Shown in pieces: positions 141-42,915 of a stretch of 64,000 nucleotides of DNA. How positions within the stretch are numbered: the stretch's first letter is position 1; the number at the start of each line of letters is the position of its first letter. The stretch covers positions 66,684,481 to 66,748,480 of the forward strand of contig NC_057718.1 in NCBI RefSeq assembly GCF_004010195.1. Direction: 5' to 3'. This stretch comes from Chiloscyllium plagiosum. Taxonomy: Eukaryota. Position numbers and translations under genes: made by a program. Below the pieces are notes generated by a model. It ran no database searches. It saw only the letters and a list, made by a program, of their open reading frames with translations, and was not told the origin of the DNA.

Positions 141-149
141 TATGTAAGG

Positions 150-12737: not shown

Positions 12738-12864
12738 TTACATATTTTCTTTGTTGTAGTGGAACTGAACACCTTGGGGATTAGCAGATGAGTAAAGATT
12801 GCACATTGTGTGAAGAACATGCGAGAGGTCATTAGGTCCACAGAAGAACACACCAATGTTGGCC
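12738..12864 (-). CDS. NOX3: NADPH oxidase 3-like, last coding exon (exon 13 equivalent)
   Basis: Manual translation: (G)[41 protein letters not shown]. Acceptor ttcattttcattAG at 12865-66, TAA at 12738-40. 127 coding nt and phase match NOX2/NOX3 last exon. GVFFCGP and MC.LYSSA.P resemble NOX3 as I recall it. Confidence 0.93.
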
Positions 12865-15800
12865 CTAATGAAAATGAAAGGTTAGAGGCAATTCAGGGCA
12901 AGGCATCTTTTACTTCCCATACTGTTAGCATTCTAATTTGTATGTTCATACCACAGATTGGCATTCAATTGCGCAAAGAGGTCGAGCACATCACTGCACT
13001 CAGCTGCCATCAGCTTGCGGTCACTTCTTCGATACAAAATTGGATCATTTACTGATGAATCCTGTTTCTACAATTATGAAAATTAACATATTCTGGTCTT
13101 CTCTGCATTAAATGGGAAACATACTGTGAATGAATTATATGACTGAATGTATGACATTCAATTTATATTATGGATGACCCATGTAAACACTCTTGATATG
13201 TATCAGTTGCAACTCACTGCAAGTAGTTTTTGGATGTTAGTACAAGGTAAAGGTAACTAAAGGGGGAAAAAAGCAATGTATCATGCTTAAAATATAATTT
13301 GCAAGAAATTTGATTGTTTTCTGTGCAAAAGAATTACTTGATGCAATAATTTTTTTGCCATACCTGAGTTGGTTGAGTTTCATCAAGTATATAACAGAGA
13401 AAATACGTTATTTAAGCCAACTAATCTGTTGCTTAAGTTCCACACAAGACTTCATCTAACACTATGGGCATTCCTCACCAATGTTGTCTCTGAACTGTGT
13501 GGCTATGTGGCCATTCCCAGGATTTATGCATGCTGATCTGGGAGTTATTCCTGTGACACATTCACTTCCAGTTTCTTCAGCCATTACCATGCATGGACCC
13601 TGGAGGCCCTTTTATGGAGAAATTAGAAGGAATGTAGTTTCCTCTTTTTTCATGTACTAACTCTTCAATGCATCTAAATACCTCAACTACTCTATGTGGT
13701 GGCATAAATCAGAATAGTGCAGATACTATAAATCTAAAGAAGCATAGAAAATGCTGGAAATATCCAAAAGGCAGCATCACGAAAACAGAAATAGAGTTAA
13801 CCTTAGATTCTGCTGAATTGTCATCACCCTATGTGCTTATATGCCCCAAATTCTTACCACTTGCCTCAGTAATGATGTTTCTCCTGAAAATTAAATTTAT
13901 TGGTAACTGTCTAATATGTATTGCTTCTAGATTTGAATTCCCTTACAAGTGGAAACATTTTACTGTTCCTTGTGAATCCTTTCTACATCTCCTACAATTC
14001 CTCAATAACTATCCTTTTAATCATGTGAATGCCAGAACTGACTAGTCATCAAAGTCTGCTGTAACAAAATTTACCATAACTTCTCTGCTTTTCAGTTCTA
14101 TCCATCTAGAAATGAACCCTGGGTGCTTGGTTTGCCTTTTTAAATTGCCTTCTGAAGCCAATTTTTTTACACTTGCAGTATGTGCAACATGTTTTCTTCT
14201 GAGCAAATATTGGTTAAATACAGAATTTAAAAAAAAACTAAATTATTGGAAGCTGAGGCAGCAGGTTTTTAAAGATGTAAAACATGTAAAACCCCTAAAC
14301 GTGTAAGCTACTGTGAAGGAAGAGAAGCACATTTACAGTATTTTAATAACTAGATAAAATAGTATTATTCACTTATCCTAAGGTAAAAGTAAAAAAAATC
14401 AGCACAGTTTCTATTTTGGAGTACAGTATATAGGAGCTGGTAGACAATGAAATCTGCATTAGAAGTCTCCATCTTGAACCTCGCAAATTCAAAATCACTG
14501 AGTTGATGTGCGAGTTGGAGAGAAGGGCATATGAAGGAAGGGTATCATTTATTCCATGTATTGGTCACACCTTGTACCAGGGACAGGTTCCATATAGGTT
14601 TGTGTAAATAAAAGTGCACAGTTAGGTGAACCCAAGTAAGATAGAGAATGAGAAACCATGCAAAGTTATCATATCGTATCTGAACCATGTACTTGAAAAA
14701 AGTCTGTTAGAAGGTAACCAGACTGCAAACCATGGCAAGAGATATAGTCCAAAGGGAGGAGGGAGAGGAGGAGAAGGAGACATGATATGGTAATTGTAGG
14801 AACTAAAAATCGCAGGACCTCAAGGATTACCATCCTTGGATTATCAACTGTGCCATATGCAAATTTATATGGAGATAAACATGTGTTCAGGAGTGGTGTG
14901 GCTGAGTATAATTCCAGTCTATGGGACACTGGAAGAGGAATAATATATCATAGAAATGGGCTTCACCTAAACTGGCTCTGACCAGGGCAAATTGAGCAGT
15001 CACAATGACCTGAAACCAGTAAATATTGCGAGGTGATGTGGGGGAGTGGGAGTGCTCAGATGGAAAAAAATACAAATGATAGTTCACAAAATAACAAAAG
15101 AGAGTCAAGTATAGGTTGGGATAAGGAAAAGGGACAAACTAAATCAATTCTTGGCACAAATTCAATTATAACTTTAATTTACATTTAAGTCTAGCCTGAC
15201 AATGGTAGTAGGGAAGATGCCAGTATCCATTATAAAAGATTTAATTGCAAAACACTTGGAAAACAATGACAGGGCCAGTCACAGTCAGGATGGATTTACA
15301 ATAGGGAAATAATGCTAATGCTACTGGAACTTTATTTGAACTTTCAGTAAGGTCCCATATAACAGTAAGCAAAAGTCCCATTTAAACATGTAAAATTAAA
15401 GTGCATGGGATTGGGGGTAGTTTATGGAAATGAATAGAGAATGGTTGGTGGACAGGAAACAACGAGTAGTAGTAAATGGTCTTTTTCTGAGTGACCAGCA
15501 ATAACTAGGGAGGTGCTACAAAGATCAGTATTTGGACCCCAGCTATTCACAATGTACATTCATGATTTAGATGAGGAAACTAAATAGAATATCTCCAAAT
15601 TTGCAAACGACACAAACTTAGTGGGTAAACTGTGAGGAAGATGCAGAAATGTTTCAGTGTGATTTAGATAGGTTGAGTGAGTAGGCAAATGCATGGCAGA
15701 TGAAGTATAATGTGAAGTATACTGTGAAGTTATTCACTTTGGTATCAAAAACAGGAAGAGAGATTATTATCTGAAATGCGACAGATTGCAACAAAACCTG

Positions 15801-15934
15801 GATGATACGTACACAAGTCACTGAGAGTAAGCTTGCATACAACAGGAGGCAAATGGTATGTTGGCCTTCGTAGAGATAGGATTCAAGTATAGGAGCAGGG
15901 ATATCTTCCTGCAACTGTACAGGACCTTGGTGAG

Positions 15935-16065
15935 GAGAAAGTGAGGTCTGCAGATGCTGGAGATCAGAGCTGAAAAATGTGTTGCTGGAACAGCGCAGCA
16001 GGTCAGGCAGCATCCAGGGAACAGGAGAATCGATGTTTCGGGCATAAGCCCTTCTTCAGGAATCA
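15935..16065 (-). mobile_element. Penelope terminal-repeat fragment with hammerhead core
   Basis: Same as 4175-4287. Flanked by TGGTGAG duplication. Confidence 0.85.
16028..16062 (-). ncRNA. Minimal hammerhead ribozyme core (Penelope-type)
   Basis: CTGAAGA-agggcttatgccc-GAAAC. Confidence 0.65.
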
Positions 16066-16182
16066 TGGTGAGACCATACTTGGAATGATATTCTGGCTTT
16101 GGAGAAAATGCGATGAACGTATACTATACTGGTTCCTACGATGGCAGAACTGAAGTACAAATATAAACTGCATTGGTTAAGA

Positions 16183-16399
16183 CTAGACAACGCCAGGTTA
16201 TAGTCCAACAGGTTTAATTGGAAGCACACTAGCTTTCGGAGCGTCGCTCCTTCATCAGGTGGTAGCGGCCACTACCACCTGATGAAGGAGCGACGCTCCG
16301 AAAGCTAGTGTGCTTCCAATTAAACCTGTTGGACTATAACCTGGTTTTGGGTGATTTTTAACTTTGTACACCCCAGTCCAACACCAGCATCTCCAAATC
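16183..16399. mobile_element. Palindromic MITE-like Penelope-derived element
   Basis: Perfect 73-bp arms 16193-16265 and 16272-16344. 10-bp duplication TTGGTTAAGA at 16173-82 and 16400-09. Confidence 0.9.
16277..16310 (+). ncRNA. Hammerhead core in the palindromic element (mirror copy on the minus strand at 16227-16260)
   Basis: CTGATGA-a-ggagc-gac-gctcc-GAAA-gctag. Confidence 0.65.
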
Positions 16400-17811
16400 T
16401 TGGTTAAGATTGTATTCATTGGAGTTTAGAAGAATGAGGGGAGATGTTATAGAAGTGTACAAAATTTTAACAGGACTAGACAGAGTAAACACAGGAAGGA
16501 AGTTCCCAAAGATTATGGAGTCCAGAACCCGGAGTCACAGTTTAAGGATGTGGGGTAGGTCATTTAGGTCTGAGTTGAGGAGAAATTTCTTCATTCAAAG
16601 ATGATGAACCTGTCGAATTCTCTACCACAGAAAGCAGTTGAGGCAAAAAATATTGAATGTTTTCAAGAAAAACTGGATAAATTTAGCATAGAGCTAAAGG
16701 AGTCAAAGGAAGAAAATGAGAACTGGAATGATAGGCCATGAGCATAGTGAATAGTGAAGCAGGTTCAAATGGCCTACTCTTGCTCTGATTTTCCATTTTT
16801 ATATATTTGGAAGTATTTGCACATAGTTGCCAAACATTTAGGAATGGAAACCAAATTTGACAGTTTTTGGTTCCTTAGGAAGGATAAGGAAAATTGTTGG
16901 AGGGGATGGAGTGGCCTGAATGAAAAAGGATAAAATCACTTCAATGGTAATTCAGGATATAATGAAAGTTAAAAAAAACACGGACAGGGAAATGTCTGTG
17001 TATGTTATTGTCGTGCACTTCCAGAACCATTTGATAAAGTCCCCTAGGAATTGAAATTTATGGAATTGGAGAGAAATTATAGATCAGGTTAGTAAATTAG
17101 CTGAGTGGAATGAGACTGAGAGAAGTGTGCAGGTAGTTAGCATCGGTATTAAGTGGATTGGGAGCAGTGTGCAGCGAGTGAGCATTGCAGTGAAGCAGAC
17201 TGAGCACGAAAGATGATGGGGCCTTTGTTCCTGAAACAGCAAGACAGAGATAAGTAACAGCAACGTCATGAAGATTTGTGAGAGCAGGGCAGCAGTTCTA
17301 TAAAAAAAAAGGTGAGAGAGAGCAGAGTTATCAGTTTCTCAAACATCATGAGTGATAAAAATTAGCAGCAGAGTCCCTTCAACTTGTTTCACTTCAAAGA
17401 GCTAAAGAGTTACATTGTAGAAAAAACAGGTAGGCGGTTGGTGAATAGTTCTGTGTTTTTTGATTTATTACAGCTGAAGAGCACATATACTAAGCCCATG
17501 GTTTTGAATATTATGAACTTTACATGTTTATTCAGTACTTTCTAAAGGTTGAGGTTACTATTTCAACCCTGCCAGGCAGTGTATTGCAGACCACCACTAC
17601 CTTCTGGGTGAAAAAAAATCATTCCTCAAATCCACTGCAAACCAGAGCCTTTCACTTTACAAGGCTGTGCCCTTGTTCGTGACATTTCAACAAAGGGGAA
17701 CAGCTGCTTTGTATCTACCCTAGCCACGGCCTCTTAATATTATAGACCTCAATCAGATCCTTACCTCACCTCTCTGCTCCAAGTAAAAATACCTGACCAT
17801 ACTCAGTCTCT

Positions 17812-19685
17812 GCGATTTTTGAGAAGATTTGAGAAAACTTTATATACTAATGTGACAGACCATAAATGGACAGACACACTAGAATGGTCCATAAGCATCA
17901 AATTGCAGCAAACACAGAAAATGAAAAAACTACCCCTACAGGAATAAACTGGACAAGCTCACAAAAAAGAACAACGCAGACAACACAGAGGCTTGGATAA
18001 AAAACCTATCAGACCAACCACTAACAGCTACAGAAAAAGCCGTCCTGGTAAGAGGGTTAGACTACAACTACAGGTATGCAGACAAAAAGGACTTTCTAGT
18101 GGCATTAGAATCAACACTGAAGGACAACGGACTCACAGAAGAAACCCAGTAGACCAGAGAGACCAGTGGCACCAACACTAAGCAGGAAAAAGGAAAGAAA
18201 CACACTCAACACACAGGAAAGGAAAGCCCTAGAAAGACTCAAAAAAGACAAAAATACTGTAATGCTACCTGCAGACAAAGGTGCATGAGCATCTTTCTAA
18301 ACAGAACGGAGTACATTGAAAAAGCGAACTCACTGCCTGCAGATACTGATACTTACTAACAGGTGGTGATAGACCTGACCCCACAACTAAAAAAACCATG
18401 TCACAGCCACATTGAAAAGGCTTCAGAAATCAGGACAAATAAACAAGACAGACTTCCAAAAATGAAACCGAATGGATCTAACACACCCTGCTTCTATGGA
18501 CTACCTAAAGTACACAAACCAGGGGCCCTCCTCAGACCCACAGTCTCACTTCCTGGAACACTGACTTATAGACTAGCCAAAGAACTCCACCAAAAACAAA
18601 TACCTAATGGAAGTCATGCCACTCCATTTACTCCACCAAGAATTCCTGAGCACCATCAAATACATCAAGATAGAAGAGGATGAAATAATGGTCTCCTTTG
18701 ATGTAACAGCCCTGTTCACATCAATTAACGACAACCTCGCCAAAGAAACACTGACTGCACTACTAGAGAAATCAAAGACACAAACACCAGATAGCACCAA
18801 CTTCATCAGCAAAGATAACATCCCCAAGTTAGTAGACCTGTGCCTCATAACCCACTTCACATTCAATAACAAGACCTACAAATAAATCAACGGAACACCC
18901 ATGGGATCACCAATATCTGGATTCCTAGCAGAAGCAGTAATGCAGAAACTCGAACAAACAGCCCTCCCAAATACCTAACCTAAACTTTTGGTCCACACCT
19001 TTGTCATCACAAAATGGAACAAATTAGGGGAAACCTACAACACCATCAACAATATCCTTACTGGCATAAAATTCACTAAAGGGGAGGAGAACACCAACAG
19101 ACTCCCATTCCGAGCTGTCACAATAGAACAAACAGTTAATGGAGAACTTCAAACCAGCATCTACAGGAAAACAATACACACAGACCAAATACTTAACCAC
19201 TGAAGCAATCATTCCAACACCCATAAACAGAGCTTAATTAGGACATTATTTCAGCAAGCCACCACACACTGCAGCACCCACGAACTATGAACAGCTGAAG
19301 AAAAATAACTATACAGCGTATCCAAGAAGAACAAGTATCCAATAAACACAGTCTGCCAATTTCCCAACAACAAACCCAAACAAGCAGACACAACATGCTT
19401 AGAAACTCTGACCACATTACCTTACATCAAAGACATCTCTGAATGACTGCCAGACTACTCAGATTGGAACCCCATCAGTAAATGCATCGATTTGGACCCT
19501 GTCTACTATCCTCTGAGAAGAAGAACCAGAAATGATATCACCCACCCAAAGAAACAAGACGCCTAAATAGAAAGCAGAACATAACATGAGCACTTTGCCA
19601 GAGGCTCACTGATGATGTTACTTTGTATGGTGATGAAATGTCTGAAATCAAACCTATCAGCTCAGCAAGCAAACTTACAACCAGT
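17812..19685 (+). mobile_element. Penelope-like retroelement, degenerate RT
   Basis: FYGLPKVHKPGALLRPTVS, MVSFDVTALFTSI, GTPMGSPISGFLAEAVMQKLE, IYRKTIHTDQILN. 12-bp duplication TACTCAGTCTCT at 17800-11 and 19686-97. Inserted in a minus-strand CR1 fragment (~17560-19980). Confidence 0.93.
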
Positions 19686-19999
19686 TACTCAGTCTCTCTT
19701 CATGGGTAAAATGCTTTACCCCAAACAACCTCCAGTTGAATCTACTCTGCATCCCTCCATCGCAATCACACCCTTCATATCGTGTATACCCAGGACTGCA
19801 CAGTTCTCCAGATGTGCCCTAACCAAAGTTCTGTACAGCTCCAACACAACCTTCTTGCTCCGATAGTGTATGCCTTGACTGATAAAGGTAAGCATTCCAT
19901 ATCTCTTATTAACTATCCTTATAACCTTGTCCTGCTATCTTCAGGGATCCCTGAAGATCACTTTGCTCCTCTGAGCTTCTTAGTCTCCTGACACTAATG

Positions 20000-21510
20000 C
20001 CGACTGCCTTGAAATTTCGTACAGAGCTGATGAGTTGGAATCAGAGCTGCAGACATTTTAACACATCAGGGAGTAGGGGAGAGTTTCTGGATACAGTCAC
20101 ACCCCTCAGATTTATTATATCAAGTTTGATCAGTGGTCAGAGACACGAGAGTCTGTGACTAAGAGCAGGTATGCTGGTCCAGAATTAAGCTTTTGAAGAG
20201 CCTCAGTTACTGCCCTTACCCAATAGCTACAATGTTCTTGTTCCCAGTATAGATAAGAGCACAGCTTAGACAGAAGATGAACACACTGACCACTGCATCA
20301 TGATCCAGAGAGCCATTCAAATGGGGGAAGAATAGTTCAAGGAATAGATGCATGTTCTTTGCAGCAAAGTCAGAGAGTCCCAAAGACTGTGGTGCTTACT
20401 TGGTGCCAAAGTTCAGGACATCTCTCCTGGGCTGGAAAGGAACTTAGAGTGGGAGGGGAAGCATCCAGTTGTCTTGGCTTACACAGATACCGATAAAGGT
20501 GGGACTAGAAAAGGAGTTCTGCTGAGGGATTAAGAGTGGATAAATTGAAAAGCCGACCACAAGTATAGTAATTGCCAGTCCTCTACCTGGGCCTAGTTAA
20601 AATTAGCATATAGCAATAAGATTGCACTGGTAAATGCATTACTCAAAGATCAGTGTGGATAAAATGAGTTCTGATTCATGGGGCACTGGCAGTAGTATTG
20701 GATAAAAAGAGAGCTGTTTCATTAGGTTGGGCTTTATTTGAGTCATGCTAGAACCAGTATCCTCTTGAGTTGTAGAACTGTGTTTAGAGATATGGCTTTA
20801 AACTAATTAGTGGAGGGGAGGATTCAGAGTGGATGTGCAGGGTAATGAAGAGGCAAATGGTGTTTAACATGTAACAGGAAGCTGTAGAAAATATACACAA
20901 AAACATGTAACGGAAATAAGAATCAAAACAGCCACAGTACTGAAAATAATTTGACAGATTAAATAGAATGTTAGCCTAATTAGAGAAATTGAATACCAGG
21001 AGGTCGAAGCCATGCTTCAGCTCTGCAATGTCCTATTCATGCCACAATTGAGCAAATCTGGGCATGACACTTCAGAAAGAATGTACTGGCATTGAAAGAA
21101 ATTCAGTCTAGATTCACCAGAATAATGATCAGACCTTAAGGTTTACATTTCAGAGTGATATTGCAAAAAGTTCAAACATATCCATTGTGATTCAAAAGGT
21201 TAAAAGGTGATTTGATCTAATATTTTCAAGACATTAAGGAGAAAGAAAGAGTGAATAGGGATATGGGTTTTTCATTGGATGGGGAGACTAGAATTAGAGG
21301 ATATAGCCTAAAGATTAGAACCAAACCTTTCAATAAGGAAAGCAGGAATACTTTACTGCACACAAAGGAGGAAGTTTGGAACTTACTTCAGTAAAAAGCT
21401 GTTGATGCTAGATTTAATTGTTAATTTTAAAACTGATTGAAAGCATTTCTTTAGCCAAAGGCACCAAAGATATAAGGCAAGATAAGTAAATTAAATTAGG
21501 TCACAGACCA
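20000..21510 (+). mobile_element. Old, deleted CR1 LINE (ORF1 esterase-like remnant and 3' end)
   Basis: CLLGAKVQDISPGLERNLEWEGKHPVV resembles the ORF1 at 62167-62916. CR1 3' motifs at 21000-21510. Confidence 0.7.
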
Positions 21511-23267
21511 GTCATGTTTAAAAGGTCTGCCTCAGTGCTCTGGGATTCTATCCAAGTAATCAAAGCAGACAAGCCCTCTACCCCTCATTTGTCACACCTC
21601 TTCACACTCCTCACACACTGTCCATATCCCATCCGTACAAACCTATGTCCCTACCCACACCCATGGCCCCACATATCTCAATCTGTGCCAATCTACCTAT
21701 CCCCAATGACTCTTCATACATTCCATGGCAATCCATTCCCTGCTACTAACCCCAATTGTTCTTTGTAGCCTAATGTTAACTTAATACCACCTTATGCCAA
21801 GTCATATATTCTATTGCTTTCTATCTTTATACTTTCCATGCCTACTAACCCAGTATCTACCATAGCTGACCTCTGGAGCCCTCCTGAGATGTAATAAAAT
21901 TAAATTATAAGTATCACTTTACAAAATATATAAAATTAAAAACACTCATGGATAAAAGCCAGTTCAATACATCTAAATGCCTTCAAAATTATAATACTTC
22001 TTAAAAGGTACAAAATGCATTTGTAATTCTACATCAAAGACAGATAGTCCCTTAATAAGCTCTTCATGGTAACAAACCCTCACTACTCCACCTCCCCACT
22101 ATGATAATTATGGGTTATGCAGGCAGTCAAAAAATACTCATCGAATAAAGGTATTTTCAGTTTTATGTCAACAAACAACTATTGAAATGGTAGGCACACC
22201 AGATTCTTTTTCAATTCAGGGGTGATGTAGGCTGGTTTATGTTTTCAAAATTTAAAAACATAGGGATTTAATAACTTGACAGTTCCATGGGCCTTATCCA
22301 TCTTACACAAGTTCATATTTCTACTTAAAAATCCTAAGTTGCACACTGCAAGAGGAGTTACCAGCAAAAATGGGATCTGTTTGAACTCTGCAGTTTTCCA
22401 AATGAATCATATCCTGCTGCTTCCCCCTACAAATAGGATCTATCAGAAATAGAGGCAGGTCTTCCTGATCCAGGTTCCCTTGTAGCATTTTCAATAGGGC
22501 ACAGAGTCTCCTTGACTCTGAATATCCAGGGCAGGGTGACATTTTGTGATCTGTTCTCCACCCATCCCCAACCTCGCCACACCAATCAGTTTGGATCAGG
22601 ACATTGGGGAATTTCAGATTGGATGCCGTGGCATTGGTGCCATGCCTGTTACCCATTCATTTCTACTGGTACTTTACTCATGGTGAAGAAGAACTGGGAG
22701 GCCTGCTTGCTCTTGAACCAATTAAGGCCCTTAATGGCCAATTTGTTTTCCCAAAATGAGAGGGTGGAAAGAGTATGTGCTGAATGCTGTTATTTCTGAC
22801 CCCACTCAGTGTCCCTCTATTTTCTTGATTGGTCTTGCATCCTCCCAAATCAAGTCTATGATGATAGGATTTAATGCATATGTGGATGAGCCTCTGGTTA
22901 GCTGTGATCTCAGTAGTCTTGTGCAAGTATAATCTCTGGTAGGATGTTGATTCCTGTACAGCACAGCTCAGTAGCCTCACTATCATGTATAGTACATTAA
23001 AATCATTGTTTAATGGTAACCTAAAAGTCTGGTTGATTACAAAGTGCTAAATAATAAATGCTACATTTCCAGCTCTCCATCATACTTGTCAGGGCCTATT
23101 GCACTCACCTTCTAATCTGGCTGCAAAGCTCCTCAGTCCCAGCATTGGCCACTATGCTTAGTAACACTGCTGTGACTAGAAAGGGATATATTCAAATGGT
23201 AGTCTGATTTTAGAGACAAGATTTCCTCAAAATCATTCTTAGGCAATTAATGGCTAAGAATACCGTG

Positions 23268-23580
23268 GGGTGCCATGGTGGCTCAGTGCTTAGCACTGCT
23301 GCCTCACAGCACCAGGGACCCGAGTTCAATTCCTGTATTGGGTGACTGTCTGTGTGGAGTTTGCACGTTCTCCTCGTGTCTACGTGGGTTTCCTCCGGGT
23401 ACTCCGGTTTCCTTCCACAGTCCAAAGGTGTGCTGGTTAGGTGAATTGGCCATGCTAAATTGCCCATAGTGTTAGGTGCATTAGTCAGGGGTAAATGTAG
23501 AGGAATGGGCCTGGGTGGGTTACTCTTCGGACGGTTGGGCCGAAGGCCCTGTTTCCATACCATAGGGAATCTAGTCTAGT
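23268..23580 (+). mobile_element. HE1-like tRNA-derived V-SINE, full length
   Basis: A box ggtggctcagtgcttag, B box gagttcaattcc, V-core, (atcta)-type tail. Confidence 0.93.
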
Positions 23581-23756
23581 GGTCTGATGGACTTACAATA
23601 GACTTAGAACTTCCAGCAGAAATAGCTTACTCCTGACTTTTAAGCTCAGGAGAAAAATCATTACCACCACATAAAATCCAGGACATTCATGCAGATCTGC
23701 ATTCCACAAACTTTTCTATATTTTAACATTTTTTGTACCTGTTGTGTGATGTACGT

Positions 23757-23821
23757 TTGTGTCTGTGTGTGTGTGTGTGTGCGCACATGTGTTTGTGTGT
23801 GTGCGCGCACACGTGCATGTG
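23757..23821. repeat. (TG)n/(CG) imperfect microsatellite
   Basis: Seen directly. Confidence 0.9.
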
Positions 23822-23845
23822 AGGTATTGACAGTAATATTACATA

Positions 23846-24660
23846 CAGTCATAGAGATGTACAGCATAGAAACAGACCCTTCGGTCCAACCCGTCCATGC
23901 CAACCAGATATCCCAACCAAATCTAGTCCCACCTGCCAGCACCCAGCCCATATCCCTCCAGCCCATATCCCTCCAAACCCTTCCTATTCATACACCCATC
24001 CAAATGCCTTTTAAAATGTTGCAATTGTACCAGCCTCCACCACATCCTCTGGCAGCTCATTCCATACACGTACCACCCTCTGCCTGAAAAGGTTGCTCCT
24101 TAGGTTTCTTTTATATCTTTCCCCTCTCATCCTAAACACATGCCCTCTAGTTCTGGACTCCCCAACCCCAGGAAAATGACTTTGTCTATTTATCCTATCC
24201 ATGCTCCTCATAATTTTATAAACCTCAATAAGGTCACCCCTCAGCCTCTGACACTCCAGGGAAGAAAGCCCCAGCCTGTTCAGCCTCTCCCTATAGCTCA
24301 AATCCTCCAACCCTGACAACATCCTTGTAAATCTTTTCTGAACCCTTTCAAGTTTCACAACATCTTTCTGATAGGAAGGAGACCAGAATTGCACGCAATA
24401 TTCCAACACTGGCCTAACCAATGTCCTGTACAGCCACAACATGACCTCCCAACTCCTGTACTTAATACTCTGACCATGTTACAGGTCCTTTTAAACAATT
24501 TCTCTAGCAATGCATAGCTTAAATAGGCCCACTTAAGTCACAATTTGCACTGGATCTGTTATTCCATGCTCATTCAGCTCCTGTACTCAGTACTCTGACC
24601 AATAAAGGAAAGCATACCAAATGCCTTCTTCACTATCTTATCTACCTGCGACTCCACTTG
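23846..24660 (-). mobile_element. CR1 LINE 3' fragment
   Basis: LYRTLVRPVLEYCVQFWSP...LERVQKRFTRM...RLRGDLIEVYKIM...RVVRVWNELP. Confidence 0.93.
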
Positions 24661-26940: not shown

Positions 26941-27304
26941 TCTGATCATATTCAAAAGTCAATTACACTCTTGGTTTCAGAGTCATGATGAATTGTAGAA
27001 AAGATACAATAAATTTACCGTCTTACCCTTCTCATTATGAAAATGCAGTTTCCACTGCTTCAAATAGTTTGAATAGGGCTAGCATCAGAAAGGAGTTAAC
27101 AAGGGTAAATGTTCAGTGTTGCTTTGTTAGTGATCATGTTGACTAGTTATAATTTATAACATTATTTTGGTCAAGCTCCAAAATCTCTGAAATGTTTGTC
27201 ATTTATTATAAGGTGGATTATGGACTGTGGCCTGAATCTTTTACAAAAATACATTAATGACTGATTGATTAATCACTAATCCATTAAAGCATCAAAGGCC
27301 TTAC

Positions 27305-27429
27305 CCAGGGTGATCATCAGCTATGCGTTTGAACTCCTTGTTCCAATCTGGCCTGCCGTAAAAAGTCTTCTGTTTCAGCCCGGTGATAACATCTTTGTTT
27401 TCTTCATAATGCAAGGCAATATGAGCAGC
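27305..27429 (-). CDS. NOX3: NADPH oxidase 3-like, exon 12 equivalent
   Basis: [41 protein letters not shown](G). 125 nt, acceptor tttttctgcAG, donor GTaagg. HIALH and KTFYGRP are NOX3-type. Missed by the ORF track. Confidence 0.95.
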
Positions 27430-31590: not shown

Positions 31591-32452
31591 GACATATGGC
31601 TGACACCCCAGACTGCCACCAAAATAGGTCCCCTGAGAGCCACCAGATGTACAACAAGCCTGCCCTACAGCTGTAAAGTGTTGAAGGTGGGCAAAATTAT
31701 TACAGGGCTGGATATTGTATGCCACAGTAAATGTGGCACCCACCTTTCATCTGTAAGGTAGGGTGAGTCTGGGAGTTGGTGGGAAGATAATGGGCTGGAC
31801 ACTTGTCTTATTTCATATGCTCAGCTGTACAAAATGCACCTAAAGGGATATATAATATCCAGTCCATGGTAAATTGCAGCACCGGGATGTGCTATGACTT
31901 GGATAAATCCATTTAATGTTACAGGATACTCAAGAGGGTAAGGCAGAAATTTTGCAAGCAATCTAGGATGGACCCATTTTAAAGAAACGTCAATGATGAA
32001 ATTCAAGCACAATGGACCCTTCAAAATGCCCTGCTCCATCACCTCTCTCTCTATTAACTGTCCCTCCATAAGCCCTCCCTCCATTAGCTCATTCAGTTGC
32101 AGCTATCAAATCAGTTATCTTCCACAGGCTCACTCAACAAATCTTCAATCTCCAACAAACTACAGTATTTTAAATGCCGAAATAAAGATTTTCATCACAT
32201 TTTGATACTTATTCGTGATTAATTAATACATTAAATATATAAAAATGATTTTTTTCATCTAAAACTTGAAGGTCTGGAACATAAATCTATCTTTATTACA
32301 TGCTTTCTGTGGGAAAGTGATTATTATTTGGTGTGTTTTTGTTTAGCTCACCATTTTCAGGAATACATTAGGAGTGTATATGCAAATTTTATTCTTTAAC
32401 ATGCAACATAAGTAAAAAAATGTCCAGAGTAAAGCAATAAATTCTCACTCAC

Positions 32453-32599
32453 CTGGTATTCATCCCAGGCAGTGAGGAAAATGTGATAACTCAGAAAGCG
32501 ACTCCTTCCTCTCTCCATCAATTGTACTTCCAGAGATTGCAAGAGATCTGCAAACCATTCAAAAGAATGGGTATCCCGGCATATCCAATAGAAGTAAAC
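32453..32599 (-). CDS. NOX3: NADPH oxidase 3-like, exon 11 equivalent (NADPH-binding domain)
   Basis: [49 protein letters not shown]. 147 nt, AG/GTgagt borders. Confidence 0.95.
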
Positions 32600-33129
32600 C
32601 TTTACATGTAAACAAAAATGTTTCAGAAATTCCATCACATTCATGAAAACATACAAGTTGAAAAAAAGTTAAAATGACAATGGAAATAAAATTTGGTGAG
32701 GAATGGTATCATCATTTTTTGGGCAATTAAGGAAAAGCAGTAAGCCAAAGGGATTCTTTAATACACATGAGGAAACAAAACAACTATTGTGACTTTTCAA
32801 ACTTAATTTTTCTTTCACATTTTGTTGTATTTTCTCTCGGTCCACATCCAAGATTTTACAATTTCCTAAACAAAGCTAAAGTGAATGCATTAAGTTTTCC
32901 TCTATTAATTGATGTACCTACCTAATCCATCTTGTTCCTTATGTAGCAGCACCTGGTCTAACACTGCAACATATTTTAAAATTGGTAAAGCTCATATTGC
33001 ACTTGCAAAAGATTTCTCTATGCAATGTGTTTCTAAAGGAATTAATCAACATAGTTTCCTTTTAGAATCTGATCATTGTGTAGCATCTGTGGGAAAGCCA
33101 ATATTTATTCTTAAAAGGTAACAGTGAAC

Positions 33130-34270
33130 CTCTCCACTCCAATGTGGTACAGGTACATCCACAGGGCTGTTGGTTAGAGAGTTCTGAGGTTTTTATCTCC
33201 AAGTTAGAATAGGGTGTAACATGGAAAAGTTGGAGATGGTCACGTTTCCTTAAATTTCGTCTCTTTGACCTTGATGATCAAAATTGTATTTTTGGGAGGT
33301 GGTGTTTTTGAAGAAATTAGTTTTGTAGTGCAGCTTGGAGGTAGTGTATATATATCATAGTTACGGTTCACTGGTGATGAAGGGCATGAATGTTTAAGGT
33401 GTTGGTTTAGGTGTGAAATAATTGAGCTACTTTATTGTCGGAAATTCACTCAATAGGCTAGTGGACAATATTCCTTCATATTCCTGACTTATGCCTTGTG
33501 CATGGTGAAAAGCTTCAGGGGAGCCATAAACTGAGGTGCTAGCTGGAAAGTGTGCAAGTTTTGACCATACTATTTACAATTAAATTTCTGTCAACAGTGA
33601 CCACTAGAGTGTTGATGTAGAAGAGTCAGTGATGATAATTGCACTGAATGTCAAGGGCAGGTAGTTACATGGTCAATTAGGAGATTTTGCATATCTTTTT
33701 CATGACTGCTATTTATCATTTACCAGCTTGAGCCAAATTATTGCCAAGGTGTTGTGCATGAAGGCAGGAGCTACTCCATGACTGAGGAGTTGCAGATGGA
33801 ACTTATCATAAAATTACCTTCAAATGTCCTCATATCTGATCTTATAAAGATTGAAACACATTGATGAAATAGCTCATGCTGCCTGGGCCTAGCACATTAT
33901 CTTGAAAACCATCCGCAGCAAAGTCCTGGGTCTGAGATGATTAACATTCAGTAATCACACCATTTTTTGTATTCAGTATGATTCCTGATAATGAAAAGGT
34001 TTCCTCCTGATTCTAATTTAATTTCAAATTGACAAAGAAGCTTTTATGGCCCATACTGTCAAACACAGCCTTGATGTAAAAGTCATCACACTCCTCTCAA
34101 TTCTGACATTTTATCCATGGTTGGACCAAGTCTGTATTGAAGTGTGGAACTAAGTGATCCTAGAAGCAACCAAAGTGTGTATCATCAGTAAGCATAGTGA
34201 GTGAGTGCCACTTGATTGAAGTCTTTGTAACATCTTGAGAATAGACTGATGGGGTAGTAATGGGCCAGAT
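33130..34270 (-). mobile_element. Very degenerate LINE RT fragment (family of 150-950)
   Basis: Shared tracts such as cagccttgatgt and cactgaatgtcaaggg. Confidence 0.6.
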
Positions 34271-35369
34271 TAAAAATAGGTAGAGTTTTCAACCACATAG
34301 AGTGGTTGTGAAAACAGACTGTTTCAGGGACCAAGACTATTACCAGGACTCTGGTACAAATAATATCTCACTAATAACCATTGCTCAGGCTGTAATTCAA
34401 ATTAACAATCAGACTTTGACATTTTCTTAAAACTGTAAAAGGAAGTTCGAGAAAATTAAGATACCTTGGTAATGAAAACACGTGCTGCATTTTGCCAATC
34501 ATGTAAATGACCCAATATTGGCCAGGAAGAGTACATCCCCTCAATTTTACAAACAAGTTAATTAAATGGCTCCGCCAAGGTTGCTGAACTGTTTAGTATG
34601 GGTGTTGACTAGGAATAGCGAGGTAACAAATATTGATGGCCGTAGTTTATAGGACCCAAGAGTAATTAAATCATTATACAGAGCCTTAAACAAGAACTGA
34701 TTGGAGTTTGTAACAAAACAATGTAAAAATTGTACAGACTTCTAACGCTTACTGACTGGACTTATCAAAATGATAAAAATGATCTGGAAGATGAATTTGT
34801 AGAATACTCTTGTAATCATTTTCTGGTGAAATATGTTTTAGAACCATTAGGATAAATCTAATTTAGATTTAACGGCTCAAAATCTCCAACAATGACAGAC
34901 CTGCCCTTCCACTTACCTGAATATATTTAAAAAGGTCAAACTTTTGATGCAGTGTCCAGAAGTCCTTCAGCACAAGGTTCCATGAGAAAAACAGCAGTGC
35001 AGAAGACGTATTCTCTTTTTTGGCAGTAACTGATAATTTAAAGGTCCAGTCTTTTCATGAATGATTTGGTGAAACGATAATTGGATAATAAATGGGTGAC
35101 TGACTGAATAAATAGATGGATGAGGTGGTTGCTGGATGTGTGGGTAGGTGGATGAGTGGGAACATCTACCATTGTATATGTGGCTTAGATGATCCAGAGA
35201 CTGAAAGATGTGGGCCAGTATTGTGCAATGAGGTAGAGTTAATTAGTAATCTCATAACATACCACCACTGGGAAATAGTCATCTAAATCGAGTTGAATTC
35301 CATATGAATTTTCAAAGTGACATACTCCAATACTACAAACAAAACTCTTATATTTAAAACCAATTCCAT

Positions 35370-36460
35370 AAGCTTGAGGGGAGAGCTGGCTAAGGTTGAT
35401 TGAATAAATAAACTAAAGGGTATAGTTGTAAGTGAACAATGAAAAACACTAAGTAACAGTTCAGAACGTTAAAGAAAAATACACTCTATTCAAAAAAAGG
35501 ACCTCAGAAAAAAATGTTTCCTTGGTTTACTAAGGAATTTAACATAGCATTAGATTAAGAGTAGAGGTTTATAATGTTACAAGGAATAGTAGTAAGCCTG
35601 AGAATTTAGAATATTTCAGAATCAGCAAAGGGCCTCAAAAAAGTTGATAAAATGAACATAGAATGAGAGTAACCCAGCCAGGAAGATAGATTAGATTATA
35701 ATAGCTTTTACAAAACATAAAACAGTTTTAAAGAGTGAGAGGTGACCTCATTGAAATCTACAAGATTCTGAAGGGACTTGACAGGGTAGACACCAGAAAA
35801 AGGGCCACACTTTGACAACATCCTAGGGGATGCCACTGGCCAGAAACTGAACTAGACCGGCCTATAAATACAGTGGCACAAGAGCAGATCAGAGGCTAGG
35901 AATCCTGCAGCAATTCTGGTCTCCTTACTTGAGAAAAAATAAACTGGCACTGGACAGGGTGCAGAGGAGTTTTACCAGGTTGATGCTAGAGTTGAAAGAG
36001 TTGGCTTATGAGGACAGATTGACTAGAGCGGTACTATACTCATTGGAACTTAGAACAATAAGGGGGGAATCTTACAGAAACATATAAAATTATGAAAGGA
36101 ATAGATAAGACAGAAGCAGGGAGGTTGTTTCCACTGGTAGGTGGAACTAGAACTAGGGGGAATAGCCTCAAAATAAGGGGGAGCAGATTAAGGACTGAGT
36201 TGAGGAGTAACTTATTCTTCAAAAGGATTCTGAATCTGTGGAATTCCCTGCTCCAATGAAACAGTTGAGGCTACCTCATTGAATGTTTTTAAGGGAAAGA
36301 TAGATTCTTGAATAGTAAAGAAATTAAAGGTTATGGTGAGTGGGCAGGTAAGTGGAGCTGAGTCCACAAAAAGATCAGCCATGATCTTGTGGAATGGCTG
36401 AGTAGGCTGTCCAGGCCAGATGGCCTACTCCTGATCCTACTTCTTATGTTCTTATGTTAA
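35370..36460 (+). mobile_element. Composite of CR1 fragments ending in (ttcttatg)n tail
   Basis: RGDLIEIYKIL and RGNLTETYKIMKGIDK motifs, CR1 3' UTR. Confidence 0.8.
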
Positions 36461-36575
36461 CTCATCTCTTCGCTCCTCAAAGCATCCCTTGTTAAATGTC
36501 TTATTATGTCTTAGTTTGTGTAATATCCTTTGTTCATTTTCAGGATAAAATAATACAATGACTTACATTACCTAC

Positions 36576-36738
36576 CCTTTCTACTTTCATTGTTGTTGCT
36601 GGTTGATTGTATTTATACCAAATAGATTTCAATACAGAAGCAAAGGGGGTCACTCCAATTCCTGTAGCAATCAACACACTAACTTCATAATAGAATACGT
36701 CTATACAGGCAGTTCCAAAAGGACCATCAACTGCAACT
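36576..36738 (-). CDS. NOX3: NADPH oxidase 3-like, exon 10 equivalent (VDGPFG and GIGVTPF NADPH motifs)
   Basis: (R)[54 protein letters not shown]. 163 nt, tgttacAG / GTaggt. Confidence 0.95.
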
Positions 36739-37754
36739 CTGTAACACATAGGAAAATGTGCACTATGGCTTAAAGTGAACAGACATGTAACTACATAAGG
36801 CACCCAATATTCATCATTACTAACAAAGTCACTTCACAGTTACAGTTTTGCAATTTTCAGTTACTTTAACCAGTGTGAGGTTTACAGGATAATAATATTG
36901 AAATATTATTATGTACCCCTAGTCATAATGTTTACACAAGATATGCAGGGAGGGGTATGTAGCATTTGCCATTTTTAATCTTTCTTCCTGATTGCCTTGA
37001 TATGATTCCATCTGTGCTCAAAACTTTATCCTCCATGTCTTAGTGTTAATAAGCTACTTCATCATGGAGAGCATCACAGTTCAACCTAAACATTTATATA
37101 CCTGATATTAAACCAATACAGTTTTCAATAAAGTCATAGAGTCATACAGCACGGAAACAGACCCTTCGGTCCAACCCATCCGAGCAGATCACACTGACCT
37201 AGCCCCATATGCCAGCATTTGGCCCATATCCCTCTAAATCCTTCCTATTCATAAAGCCATCCAGATGCCTTTTATAGAGACATATCAGTAACAAAAAATT
37301 AAAGGATTGAATCATAACAAAGGTCCCTAAATTTGACTCCCAAATCTGATACTAACCCCTAAATTTAAATTTTGTAATTCAGGGCTGGTGGTGTTGTAAA
37401 AAGGTACTACATCATTATTGATTATAGAAGATAACTACATTGTCAACTGTCAAACTGTTTTCAAGAACAGTTACAAACATAGGGTTACTATAGGTTTACC
37501 AGTAAAAACTTACAGGTGATCAGAACATCAAAGATCATCACCTGGAGGAATTCACTCTGCTCCAGGAACATTGAGACCAATTGTAGTCCTCCAATTGTTA
37601 TCATAGCTATGATTACTTAATTCAGCATGCATCAGTAATTAAATCAGGGACTTCATAACAAACCATATTGCTATATCAGGCAGCACTGAGACTGCAGAAC
37701 AGTATTGTATCTGGTTTATTTATCAGGGTCAAACAGGCAACACATATTGTATGA

Positions 37755-38450
37755 TAAGAACACAAAGAATTGTAATGGACCATTTGGCCCATCAAACCTG
37801 CCTTGCTCTTCAGTAAGATCATTGGTGATTGCCTCAGGCCTCAATTTCTGTTTTATACGTCATAAATCTCAACCCCAGATAGTTCAAAAATCTACCCACC
37901 TCCTCTTTAAATATTTTCAGAGATTAACTCCACAAAACTCTTTGGAGTAGGGAATTCCAGACATTCACTGCTCTCAGGGAAGTAATGCCTTTACATCTCA
38001 GTTTTTAATGAGTGTCCTCTAATTCTGTAACTAATTCCCCTAATTTGAGGATTCCCCACTTTTGAAGAATCTTTGTAACATCTACCTTGTCCACCCCTCA
38101 GAATTGTTTATATTTCAATGAGGTCACCTCTCATTTTCTGAACTCTAAAGAAACAAGGCCTAACCTATTTACCCATTTTAGATCAGTGAAACCCTTCATC
38201 CCGGAAAAAGCCTAGTGATTTTTTTTGATCTGCCTCCTTATACCTTTCTTAAATCCAGGAACCCAATCTGTACACAATATTCCAGGGGTGGCCTCCACAA
38301 CACCATAAATGGTTATAACAAGACTTCCCTGTTTTTATTCCCCCAGCAATGAAGGCCAAAATTCTTTTTTGCCTCCTTAATTAATTGTGGCACCTGCATA
38401 CTAACTTTTTATGTGTTATGTACATGAACATCCAGATCCCTTTGTGCTGC
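37755..38450 (-). mobile_element. Old CR1 3' fragment
   Basis: Complement of RGDLIEI.. and EYCVQ motifs. Confidence 0.75.
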
Positions 38451-38616
38451 ACTTAAATAAAAGCAAAATACTGCATACTCTGGAAATGTAAAGCAAACTC
38501 ATTAAACTCATCATGTCTGGCGGCAACTGCAAAGAGAGTAAGATAAGATTAAATCTTCTGAATCGAATAATAGTTCTAAAGAAGTCATATCAGATTCAAA
38601 ATATTAACTCTGTTGC

Positions 38617-39000
38617 AAGGTTTGTGAAGGTTTGTAGCTCAGGTTGAGGTTTAGGGTGTAGGTTTGCTCGCTGAGTTGTAGGTTTGATATCCAGACGTTT
38701 CATTACCTGGCTAGGTAACATTATCAGTGGCGGCCTCCAAGTGAAGCGAAGCTGTTGTCTCCTCCTTTCTATTTATATCTTTCTCCTGAATGGAGTTCCT
38801 GGGGTTTGTGGCAATGTCATTTCCTGATCGTTTTTCTGAGGGGTTGATAGATGGCATCTAGTTCTATGTGTTTGTTTATGGCATTGTGGTTGGAGTGCCA
38901 GGCCTCTAGGAATTCTCTGGCATGTCTTTGCTTAGCCTGTCCCAGGATAGATGTATTGTCCCAGTCGAAATGGTGGGTTTTTTTCATCCGTGTGTACGGC
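38617..39000 (-). mobile_element. Penelope-like 3' end (family related to 17812-19685), runs into gap
   Basis: FDWDNTSILGQAKQRHAREFLEAWHSNHNAINKHIELDAIY reading and terminal repeat. A short copy lies at 55321-55396. Confidence 0.85.
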
Positions 39001-39674
39001 NNNNNNNNNNNNNNNNNNNNNNNNNNNNNNNNNNNNNNNNNNNNNNNNNNNNNNNNNNNNNNNNNNNNNNNNNNNNNNNNNNNNNNNNNNNNNNNNNNNN
39101 NNNNNNNNNNNNNNNNNNNNNNNNNNNNNNNNNNNNNNNNNNNNNNNNNNNNNNNNNNNNNNNNNNNNNNNNNNNNNNNNNNNNNNNNNNNNNNNNNNNN
39201 NNNNNNNNNNNNNNNNNNNNNNNNNNNNNNNNNNNNNNNNNNNNNNNNNNNNNNNNNNNNNNNNNNNNNNNNNNNNNNNNNNNNNNNNNNNNNNNNNNNN
39301 NNNNNNNNNNNNNNNNNNNNNNNNNNNNNNNNNNNNNNNNNNNNNNNNNNNNNNNNNNNNNNNNNNNNNNNNNNNNNNNNNNNNNNNNNNNNNNNNNNNN
39401 NNNNNNNNNNNNNNNNNNNNNNNNNNNNNNNNNNNNNNNNNNNNNNNNNNNNNNNNNNNNNNNNNNNNNNNNNNNNNNNNNNNNNNNNNNNNNNNNNNNN
39501 NNNNNNNNNNNNNNNNNNNNNNNNNNNNNNNNNNNNNNNNNNNNNNNNNNNNNNNNNNNNNNNNNNNNNNNNNNNNNNNNNNNNNNNNNNNNNNNNNNNN
39601 NNNNNNNNNNNNNNNNNNNNNNNNNNNNNNNNNNNNNNNNNNNNNNNNNNNNNNNNNNNNNNNNNNNNNNNNNN
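39001..39674. other. Assembly gap
   Basis: Run of N. Confidence 1.
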
Positions 39675-40415
39675 TCGGAGGCTGAGGGGTGACCTTATAG
39701 AGGTTTACAAAATTATGAGGGGCATGGATAGGATAAATAGACAAAGTCTTTTCCCTGGGGTGGGGAAGTCCAGAACTAGAGGGCATAGGTTTAGAGTGAG
39801 AGGGGAAAGATATAAAAGAGACCTAAGGGGCAACGTTTTCATGCAGAGGGTGGTACGTGTATGGAATGAGCTGCCAGAGGATGTGGTGAAGGCTGGTAAA
39901 ATTGCAACATTTAAGAGGCATTTGGATGTGTATATGAATTGGAAGGGTTTGGAGGGATATGGGCCGGGTGCTGGCAGGTGGGATTAGGTTGGGTTGGGAT
40001 ATCTGGTCGGCATGGACGGGTTGGACCGAAGGGTTTGTTTCCATGCGGTACATCTCTATGACGCTATAAGAGGCATGGATGGGGTGAATGCACTGAGTCT
40101 TTTTCCCAGAGTTGGAGAATCAAGGACTAGAGGACATCAGTTTAAGGTTAGAGGGGAAAGAATAAAAGGGAACCTGAGGGGCAACTGTTTTATACAGGGT
40201 GGCATGCATATGGAATAAGCTGTCAACAGAAGTGGTTGAGGCAGGTACATTAACAACATTTAAAAGGCATTTGGACAAATACATGGATAGGAAAGGATTT
40301 GAAGGATATGGGCCAAGTGCAGGGAAATGGGGTTAGCCTGGACAGCCATTTTGGTTGGCATGGACCAGTTTGGGCCAAAGGGCCTGTCTCTGTGCTGTAA
40401 GACTCTATGACTCTA
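39675..40415 (+). mobile_element. Two tandem CR1 3' ends
   Basis: RRLRGDLIEVYKIMRGMDR...RVWNELP, followed by a second diverged copy with ctctatgactct tail. Confidence 0.92.
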
Positions 40416-41259
40416 GAATACAAAATGTTGCTTGACTGTCCCATGGATTGAAGCATTAGGCACAAAGATAAGCCGTTTGAATTATGAAATGGCTAACTTT
40501 GCGCTGGTTAAGATTAAAGTGAACCATGGGAAATTTGCAACTACAATAAATTGGATATAAATATTCAATTCTTTGCAGCATGGTCCCATCAAAGAAGACT
40601 CAGTCAAAGATGTCTTGCCTTGGAAATGTATCCCATTATACAACTCTAAAAGTGAAAATCACCATTGTCCCAGAAGACCACAGGCTTCTCTCCAATTGGA
40701 GAGACTTGACTGATTACAAGTTGATCCTGAAGGTGACCACTCTGCAGATGATGGACGAGGTTGAGAAGGCAAGATCCTCATAGTGACTTCAAGCAGTATA
40801 GGAATATGTGGCTAACAGAAGATAGAGCACTGAATACATGAAATCGTATTATGATGAATTGTACTAGCAGATAAATTCCACGATTGGTATGGAATTTTCC
40901 TTCCTTCTGCATTAAATTGAATTTCTTAGAACTAAGATTTGCTGTCTTTCTGAAATATCAAATCAAAGGTAGTAAGGTTAATTGAATAAACTTTCTTAAA
41001 AGCTTGCAGATCTTCTGATAAGATGTACATGTGATATACACTTTTGATCTTATTTTACTTATATTTATCCCATAATAACTAAGCTGAATTACGATTTTGG
41101 TGTGCTGAAAGGGCTGCATTGGGTTAGTCTGAACATACTCTCCAATTTCTCATGCGCGACTGAAATTTAAAATGCGCTAAAACCCCCAATACTAAAGATT
41201 ATAAAAAACTTTTGACCAATGTGGAACTGAACTATACAAGGTTCATCCCTGTGTAAAAA

Positions 41260-41372
41260 GGAGAAAGTGAGGACTGCAGATGCTGGAGATCAGATCTGAA
41301 AAATGTGTTGCTAGAAAAGAGCAGCAGGTCAGGCAGCATCAAAGGAGCAGGAGAATCGACTTTTTGGGCATA
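41260..41372 (-). mobile_element. Penelope terminal-repeat fragment
   Basis: Same as 4172-4270. Confidence 0.85.
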
Positions 41373-41876
41373 GGTCTGGAGGTCTTTGCTTTAATTTCTC
41401 CTCTGAACTGATATTGTCTCTAGTGAGGGAAACATCAGTTGAATTTGCTGTCACAACTGCACCAGCACATCTGGATATACAAGGAGCTAAATCGTTACCA
41501 CTCATGACCCTCAGCTAATGATTTGCACATGAAAGTGCACTTGTAGGTAAATTACATGAAGGGCAGAGGCGATGCTTCTATTGTCTAAATAGCCTGGTTG
41601 CATTTACAGTTTAGGAACCTTCAGGAAGAATGGAATTTGAATGAAATGAAACTGCAGAATTGTTAGCATTATTTTAAACAGAGGAAAGGGAAAGCAGCAG
41701 TTCCGCCAGTTTCTGATTTTTTTTTTGGTGCACACGGCTCGTTTGCATACTTAAACCTTCTACTTGCTGTATATCCAGAATATGAATATCCATAACAGAA
41801 ACAAAGTACGAACACTTTCATTATTCAATGATATAAAACTAGCAAGATATGTATGTATCAGTCTCAAATTATAAAC

Positions 41877-42130
41877 CTTGGCATCTTCCATGCTTCCCGA
41901 AATCCCCTTAAATGAGCTCCACAGGCCTCATAGAGAGCACTTGTCCAGTCTCCCATGGCTCTCATATGAATGCTAAAGTGGTCTTCTTCAGAGGCAGAAG
42001 TTAATGTGAATGGATGCCATTCATATCGAGATATTGAAGGACAGTGCAGGAAGATGTACTGACCAGCTTTCATTTTAAAGCCTTGTTTTTTCATTTGAAG
42101 CTCAAGTACCCTGGAGGGATGTACAATCAC
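41877..42130 (-). CDS. NOX3: NADPH oxidase 3-like, exon 9 equivalent (FAD-binding HPFTLTS)
   Basis: VIVHPSRVLELQMKKQGFKMKAGQYIFLHCPSISRYEWHPFTLTSASEEDHFSIHMRAMGDWTSALYEACGAHLRGFREAWKMP(R). 254 nt, gacAG / GTttat, phase 2 joins exon 10. Confidence 0.95.
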
Positions 42131-42822
42131 CTGTCCGTCAAAAGAAAGGTTCTTAATATAAGTAGTCTTGTAAGGTATTGTACATAGTTCTTATATTTAC
42201 AGTAAAGTCAAAATTTCATCAGTTCTTAGGAGATATTGCTGAATCTGAACTTGGGAAAAGTATAATGATAAATGCTCACTTTTAATTAAGTTAAACATTT
42301 AACCAAGTCTTTAAAACCCATGCTTAGTATAGCCATCATTACTTCCTGATTTACTTTATCTTCATTTTTTTCTCTTTAGTGACTTGTGCGATAGAGTCTC
42401 CCTGATCATCTATAATATTGATGTGCAAATTATTTGTTCACTGTTTTTATATTTATTATGCTGACTATAATACAGCTCTGCTTTATTCATCAGAGTATAA
42501 GGAAACACGACAAACTAAATGTTTAAATGTAAATGACCTTCCTGTGACATTTGATAGAACAGCAACAGGTTCATTGATTCAGAACTCAGAGGCCACATGC
42601 ATCACTCATGGTACTACTTGACACCCAGTTAGATTGGGGTTTATCACTTCTTAATCTGGCTGATAGGTCAGATAAATTTTAAAAATGCATATAGCTGTTC
42701 ACCAAAGAGGAAGGGAAATGCTAAACTGTCAGGTGAAATAATTTCTGAGCACAAAACAAGTAAGATATAGGTATGTAAAGAAATACTTCAGTCAGAGTAA
42801 GATGTTACCAAGTAGTTTTTAC

Positions 42823-42915
42823 CTTTGTAATCACGACTTTTTGCAGAGATCTATAATATCGAATCAATCTTTCACAAATGTACAGAAAAACAGGACCCAA
42901 AACCCATTTCCAAGT
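42823..42915 (-). CDS. NOX3: NADPH oxidase 3-like, exon 8 equivalent (sixth TM helix)
   Basis: [31 protein letters not shown]. 93 nt, ttttcttttcAG / GTaaaa. Confidence 0.94.

Follow-up and report, generated by a model that had tools for sequence, protein, structure and literature searches.

A NOX3-type NADPH oxidase gene in a bamboo shark and its bearing on the age of NOX3

Exons and gene model at the locus

We analyzed a 64,000-nucleotide (nt) stretch of genomic DNA (the window, in whose numbering all positions are given) that carries exons of an NADPH oxidase (NOX) gene, which we assign below to NOX3, on its minus strand. In a six-frame motif scan, NOX motifs were confined to that strand and fell in five blocks running from 42 kb down to 12.7 kb, with a sixth block at the upper edge of the span. 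An earlier reading, made from the letters without database searches (the sequence-only reading), had described six in-frame exons free of stop codons, and this description proved accurate. The six exons span positions 42915 to 12738; all six acceptors are AG, all five donors are GT, and the phases are compatible. Spliced together, they form an uninterrupted reading frame of 909 nt, made up of 302 codons and a closing stop codon. The introns measure, in order, 692, 5138, 3976, 5023, and 14,440 nt. The same six blocks were recovered by tblastn with six full-length NOX proteins. The encoded segment corresponds to NOX residues 266 to 567, the half of the protein that binds flavin adenine dinucleotide (FAD) and NADPH.

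The first coding exon in the window (42823 to 42915; 93 nt, bounded by AG and GT) covers residues 266 to 296 of the orthologue. Its protein is identical to that of the Hemiscyllium NOX3-like model across the exon, and by analogy with NOX2 it presumably encodes the last membrane helix and the linker that follows. The second exon (41877 to 42130; 254 nt) holds the FAD-binding subdomain, with the HPFTLTS and GDWT motifs, and matches Pfam FAD_binding_8 (PF08022) with an E value of 1.5e-19. NOX2 (CYBB, or gp91phox; structures 8gz3 and 8kei) has the same FAD-binding exon, and the window's copy alone matches human NOX2 with an E value of 2e-35. Because a single exon reaches this value and tblastn finds all six blocks, the exon set is far beyond chance. 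The VDGPFG motif and the NADPH-binding GIGVTPF lie in the third exon (36576 to 36738; 163 nt). The fourth (32453 to 32599; 147 nt) encodes FEWF and FLSYHIFLT and has an atypical AAG acceptor; its junctions match those of the C. plagiosum model described below. HIALH and KTFYGRP are in the fifth (27305 to 27429; 125 nt). The last coding exon (12738 to 12864; 127 nt), which follows the 14,440-nt intron and has a good acceptor, contributes GVFFCGP, the terminal KEN, and the TAA stop codon.

In a per-exon Pfam scan of exons 2 to 6, NAD_binding_6 (PF08030) scored above the cut-off in exons 3 to 5, and exon 6 on its own gave no NOX-domain match. The FAD and NADPH motifs noted by the sequence-only reading are all present, in the two Pfam matches and in the alignment: an FAD-binding domain with HPFT and the NADPH-binding GIGVTPF, FEWF, CGP, terminal Glu, and VxGPFG. 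In human CYBB, exons 8 to 13 appear to have the same lengths as these six.

We compared the window protein with database models. Over five exons it is identical (261 of 261 residues) to the Chiloscyllium plagiosum protein that RefSeq calls "NADPH oxidase 3-like" (XP_043552756.1; P0091). Over all six, last exon included, it agrees at 301 of 302 residues with the Chiloscyllium punctatum protein of the same name (XP_072436223.1; P0101), which has 567 residues in full; the one differing site, at window residue 221, is A/T. Because of these identities we place the host among the bamboo sharks (Chiloscyllium, most like C. plagiosum), in keeping with the cartilaginous fish that had been proposed, and regard the gene as already annotated, a possibility that had been foreseen. 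It is an ordinary orthologue and not a discovery. The top match of the FAD-binding exon was a Hemiscyllium "NADPH oxidase 3-like" protein (96%), whose cluster holds 15 members from 13 shark species, 13 of them named NOX3-like and two hypothetical. Further clusters add eight rays and skates and the elephant shark, and NOX3-labelled proteins are known from 22 cartilaginous fishes.

A small practical result is that the C. plagiosum gene model can be completed with the last exon, which it lacks. That model has 526 residues and is without the last 41, because it ends at the stop codon met immediately upon reading through the donor at 27304; the window supplies these residues from an exon 14.4 kb further on. 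The protein of this last exon is identical to that of the C. punctatum model, and contigs of one DNA-like run (X1) cover the exon with no listed difference in the coding part, which lends it weak support. Among the distinct cartilaginous-fish models checked, 23 of 27 include the exon and four are without it. Besides C. plagiosum, the NOX3 models P0103, P0111, and P0112 of other cartilaginous fishes also end early, and the pattern suggests a recurrent annotation slip at the long last intron.

The exons had been called intact. This is shown for the 302 codons in the window, out of about 567 residues; the haem-binding transmembrane half lies outside the window. Searching positions 42916 to 64000 by tblastn with six full-length proteins, among them shark, ray, chimaera, and coelacanth sequences, revealed no upstream exon, and a PAM30 search of the same positions with four N-terminal halves gave chance matches only. 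A decaying or truncated gene, either reduced to its 3' half or encoding, like the RefSeq model, a protein cut short of the last exon, would fit the absence of 5' exons within 21 kb upstream, the end of the C. plagiosum model at exon 5 of six, and the Ser that this model has in place of Cys in a CLNFNC motif. We consider such a gene almost certainly not what is present here. The 909 nt are free of stops and frameshifts, and the same RefSeq model has the whole N-terminal half. Moreover, the last exon combines a good acceptor with a residue-for-residue match to C. punctatum and is included in most cartilaginous-fish models, as noted above. The two Chiloscyllium database models each have histidine at the four haem positions (His 101, 115, 206, and 219).

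The Ser mentioned above is residue 64 of XP_043552756.1, outside the window, where relatives have Cys; it may be a polymorphism, an assembly error, or a real change. Two runs of N, at 39001 to 39674 and 61152 to 61555, each lie amid retroelement sequence, and an exon hidden in either is unlikely.

Phylogenetic placement of the gene

Database names are no proof of orthology, as some mammal proteins that UniRef calls "NADPH oxidase 2" score among NOX3 (P0050 and P0163, probably misnamed and excluded from the trees). For this reason we built trees. The full-length tree comprised 567 columns and 33 of 60 rows, with C. punctatum as a proxy for the window gene. It contained a NOX3 clade with support of 100/100, which took in shark, ray-finned, and lobe-finned sequences and was sister to NOX1+NOX2. 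Branching within this clade equals the species tree, in the order cartilaginous fish, ray-finned fish, coelacanth, lungfish, amphibians, and amniotes. Approximately unbiased (AU) tests on the full-length data rejected uniting the shark gene with NOX2 (p = 8e-82), with NOX1 (p = 1.5e-4), or with NOX1+NOX2 (p = 1.3e-4), as well as placing it outside all bony paralogues (p = 2.6e-4).

The tree of the window half was computed from 302 columns under LG+G4, with 41 rows retained from 61; the lamprey row and a mis-modelled canary NOX1 were among the 20 dropped, and most of the other 18 were close relatives. The window gene fell in a cartilaginous-fish group (100/99) inside NOX3 (97/93), and the NOX1+NOX2 group (100/97) contained separate NOX2 sequences of shark, ray, and chimaera. 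In a quick-search tree of all 61 rows, the window gene was again inside NOX3 (Shimodaira-Hasegawa-like approximate likelihood ratio test, 93), and the lamprey row was inside too. An AU test on the window's 302 columns rejected a union with NOX2 (p = 0.017). A tree with NOX1, NOX2, and NOX3 had been suggested by the sequence-only reading; in those that we ran, the window gene or its proxy lies outside NOX1 and NOX2, with NOX1 represented by coelacanth and birds only. Together, these trees suggest, with a probability that we put at roughly 95%, that the window gene is a NOX3 orthologue and that NOX3 split from NOX1+NOX2 before cartilaginous and bony fishes diverged. Both the NOX3 identity and the age originally proposed find support here, the trees placing the origin in the jawed-vertebrate ancestor or before.

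Several results weigh against this assignment. On the window half, AU tests did not reject a union with NOX1 (p = 0.051), a union with NOX1+NOX2 (p = 0.205), or a position outside all (p = 0.177). A firm orthology result depends on the proxy sequence, because the window half rejects just one of the four rivals. The main gap is the NOX1 sample, which consists of coelacanth and birds with no shark, teleost, amphibian, or mammal sequence. With a mixture model and the long lamprey branch included (26 of 60 rows), jawed-vertebrate NOX3 received 87/85; the deeper forks within NOX3 stand at 89 to 93 bootstrap, and the half-length tree misplaces the ray-finned fishes beside coelacanth and lungfish. 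Over all diagnostic columns, the window has six of nine bony-NOX3 states and six of 20 NOX2 states. Synteny weighs neither way. The neighbours of NOX3 are TFB1M, CLDN20, and TIAM2 (Kawahara, Quinn and Lambeth, 2007, PMC1940245, in the part consulted). No neighbour gene was found in positions 1 to 12737 by a search for TFB1M and claudin motifs and by a Pfam scan, which short exons would escape.

Among the diagnostic columns whose state is derived relative to invertebrates, the window matches all four of NOX3 and one of nine of NOX2. Human NOX3 (NP_056533.1; P0135) belongs to the same clade and length class and has HIALH, KTFYGRP, and FLSYHIFLT in common with the window protein. Mammalian NOX3 proteins are about two-thirds identical to it over the window half (67% for a primate NOX3), and a separate NOX2 of the same genus, Chiloscyllium, is 64% identical. 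The three shared motifs were among the residues said to separate NOX3 from its paralogues, and they discriminate well. HIALH occurs in 15 of 19 bony NOX3, in none of 20 NOX1/2, and in none of nine invertebrate sequences; the corresponding counts are 15, one, and zero for KTFYGRP and nine, zero, and zero for FLSYHIFLT. The remaining items on that list fared worse. GVFFCGP is ancestral, being present in six of the nine invertebrate outgroups, and MC.LYSSA.P is rare, occurring in only three of 19 bony NOX3. GTASED, found in 16 of 16 NOX2, is absent from the window gene and sets it apart from NOX2, and the same absence is common to six of nine outgroups.

The gene could also be an additional, fourth paralogue, or a NOX1-like copy that has evolved slowly, and could look like NOX3 merely through ancestral residues. 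Such a gene would be compatible with the ancestral motifs just described and is permitted by the half-length AU tests. At 68% identity over this half, an amphioxus NOX comes as near to the window protein as human-type NOX3 does, most shark copies are named only "NOX3-like" by NCBI, and shark NOX1 lies outside the sample. Set against these points are the rejection of four alternatives by the full-length AU tests, a clade that follows the species tree, and the full set of derived NOX3 residues. We therefore view a fourth paralogue or NOX1-like copy as very unlikely and retain NOX3 orthology for the window gene.

The gene appears well conserved. Across 38 other vertebrate NOX1/2/3 sequences, 92 alignment columns reach a conservation of 95% or more, and the window keeps 89 of them. 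The three departures are V to I, K to R, and P to S directly after HPFTLTSA, and the last of these is common to nine of 11 cartilaginous-fish NOX3. Identity across shark species is 87 to 100%, which suggests purifying selection. At window residue 78, in the exon at 41877 to 42130, the 38 other vertebrate NOX1/2/3 sequences all have Pro. Every shark model has Ser there, as do the models checked from stingray, sawfish, and devil ray, but skates and chimaera have Pro, a pattern calling for one change with a reversal in skates or for two changes.

Distribution of NOX3 and a possible role in the ear

NOX3-labelled proteins occur in coelacanth, lungfish, frogs, a salamander, caecilians, and amniotes. 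They are found also in sturgeon, paddlefish, bichir, reedfish, and bowfin, and those of them put in the trees fall in the NOX3 clade. We scored 7,998 candidates with a profile built from sturgeon and reedfish NOX3; no teleost was among the best 120 of its 3,410 matches, in which the first NOX2 stood at rank 118. All 24 teleost matches from an earlier homologue search were NOX2. Loss of NOX3 in teleosts is probably the simplest reading. It is weakened by the fact that this absence is based on annotated proteins among the matches listed, where gar is missing too. The bowfin is present there, and for gar a loss, a short model, or a missing annotation would each account for the result. Our reading of the trees and the distribution is that NOX3 diverged from the NOX1+NOX2 lineage before the separation of cartilaginous and bony fishes and persisted in chimaeras, sharks, rays, bichirs, sturgeons, bowfin, coelacanth, lungfish, and tetrapods; teleosts probably lost it.

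In the part consulted, Kawahara, Quinn and Lambeth (2007, PMC1940245) reported no Nox3 in Xenopus or teleosts and concluded that it emerged last, with full-time land life; no cartilaginous or non-teleost fish is among the species named there. A review of Nox3 from 2024 (PMC10886416) repeats an origin after fish and amphibians, and the word "shark" is absent from the portion examined. The accessible portion of PMC9013928 holds nothing further on the range of NOX3. Our search of the open-access literature, which covered few subscription papers, turned up no report that assigns NOX3 to cartilaginous fish; it may well already appear in public gene trees or among the genes listed with published genomes. 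Our trees contradict an origin after fish and amphibians and point to an ancient paralogue sister to NOX1+NOX2, a modest evolutionary correction. The question would then be reversed, from what land animals gained to how teleosts mineralize otoliths without NOX3. Likewise, egg-laying sharks, bichirs, and sturgeons, and not zebrafish, would be the fish models for Nox3.

A lamprey protein may extend this range. The Petromyzon marinus "NADPH oxidase 3-like" protein (XP_075909329.1; P0289) and a near-identical model (P0317) are very diverged, with HIALH present, HPFT absent, and GPFG altered. A HIALH-type motif was found in five of 150 representatives at 50% clustering, namely, NOX3 of horse and of a turtle, a mammal-like fragment, and the two lamprey models, which represent one gene. 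Lamprey NOX is sister to NOX3 at 78/58, with alternative placements unrejected, and has three of 13 derived NOX3 residues and one of 10 derived NOX1/2 residues. By these characters it may be a degenerate NOX3 orthologue.

By analogy with the NOX family, the full shark protein would be a membrane flavocytochrome with six helices. Electrons would move from NADPH in the cytosol to FAD, on through two haems, and finally to oxygen across the membrane, producing superoxide. Its partners would be p22phox and NOXO1; NOX3 requires p22phox and is aided by NOXO1, according to the parts consulted of PMC3591440 and PMC2121648. A role of NOX3 in otoconia has been shown in mice only (Kawahara et al., 2007, PMC1940245, and the review PMC9361852, as far as consulted). 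In one proposal, called unclear by its own review (PMC9361852, same portion), oxidant in the endolymph acts on calcium-rich vesicles bearing Oc90 and thereby seeds crystals. Extrapolating from mice, we lean toward a role for shark NOX3 in the vestibular ear, where it would seed otoconia.

A true NOX3 orthologue could also have a job other than otoconia in sharks, with the ear role arising later and superoxide being made elsewhere, as in kidney, gonad, or gill. We rate this a serious possibility, at somewhat less than even odds. Fish build otoliths without Nox3 (Kawahara et al., 2007, PMC1940245, in the part consulted). In addition, there are elasmobranch-specific changes, such as the P to S after HPFTLTSA. 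Against a job outside the ear, the gene persists in those non-teleost fish lineages, sharks included, that carry otoconia. Among the matches listed it was not found in teleosts, whose ears hold three large otoliths and lack an otoconial membrane; Deans (2010, PMC2939893) states the latter and adds that "primitive jawfish" have an otoconin of their own.

Seeding of otoconia by NOX3 can be extended into a broader scenario, which we regard as doubtful. NOX3 would be the first-branching of vertebrate NOX1/2/3, may reach lampreys, would have served to seed otoconia ever since the vertebrate ear arose, would have been retained by lineages that form crystal masses, and would have been lost in teleosts with the switch to solid otoliths. 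The NOX3-first branching order is supported by the full-length tree. The link to crystal type rests on general anatomy and inference and leaves gar unaccounted for. If the scenario is true, loss of NOX3 would be a molecular marker, and perhaps a cause, of the transition from otoconia to otoliths. That teleost NOX3 loss goes with solid otoliths is a testable idea.

Surroundings of the gene

The first AATAAA after the stop codon, a candidate poly(A) signal identified by a sequence scan, lies at 11936 to 11941 on the minus strand and implies a 3' untranslated region of about 800 nt. Two single-cell RNA runs, of which about 2% and 6% were read, and a presumed-RNA contig set of unrecorded tissue were compared with positions 11870 to 15600; only repeat-edge matches were obtained, near 11875 to 11914 and 15385 to 15416, which weighs neither way. 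An Rfam search gave no matches. The 99 frames of at least 55 residues in positions 1 to 12737 yielded three reverse transcriptase matches, one zinc finger below the cut-off, and one weak GIY-YIG match.

Retroelement remnants are spread over the window. A Penelope-like GIY-YIG fragment lies near 11044 to 11547 (a weak match), and fragments of long interspersed nuclear elements (LINEs) are found at 6400 to 7900, 23900 to 24500, and 39700 to 40100. A broken LINE copy at 59500 to 63300 on the minus strand has ORF1 (open reading frame 1)-like GDSL/OSK, endonuclease, and reverse transcriptase frames; we take it to be CR1-like, which would fit a shark genome. Within the last intron of the gene, in a repeat-rich stretch, there is a near-perfect palindrome of 152 nt (98.7%) at 16193 to 16344. 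Finally, a tandem array at 52762 to 53049 consists of about nine copies, 84% alike, of a 33-nt unit.

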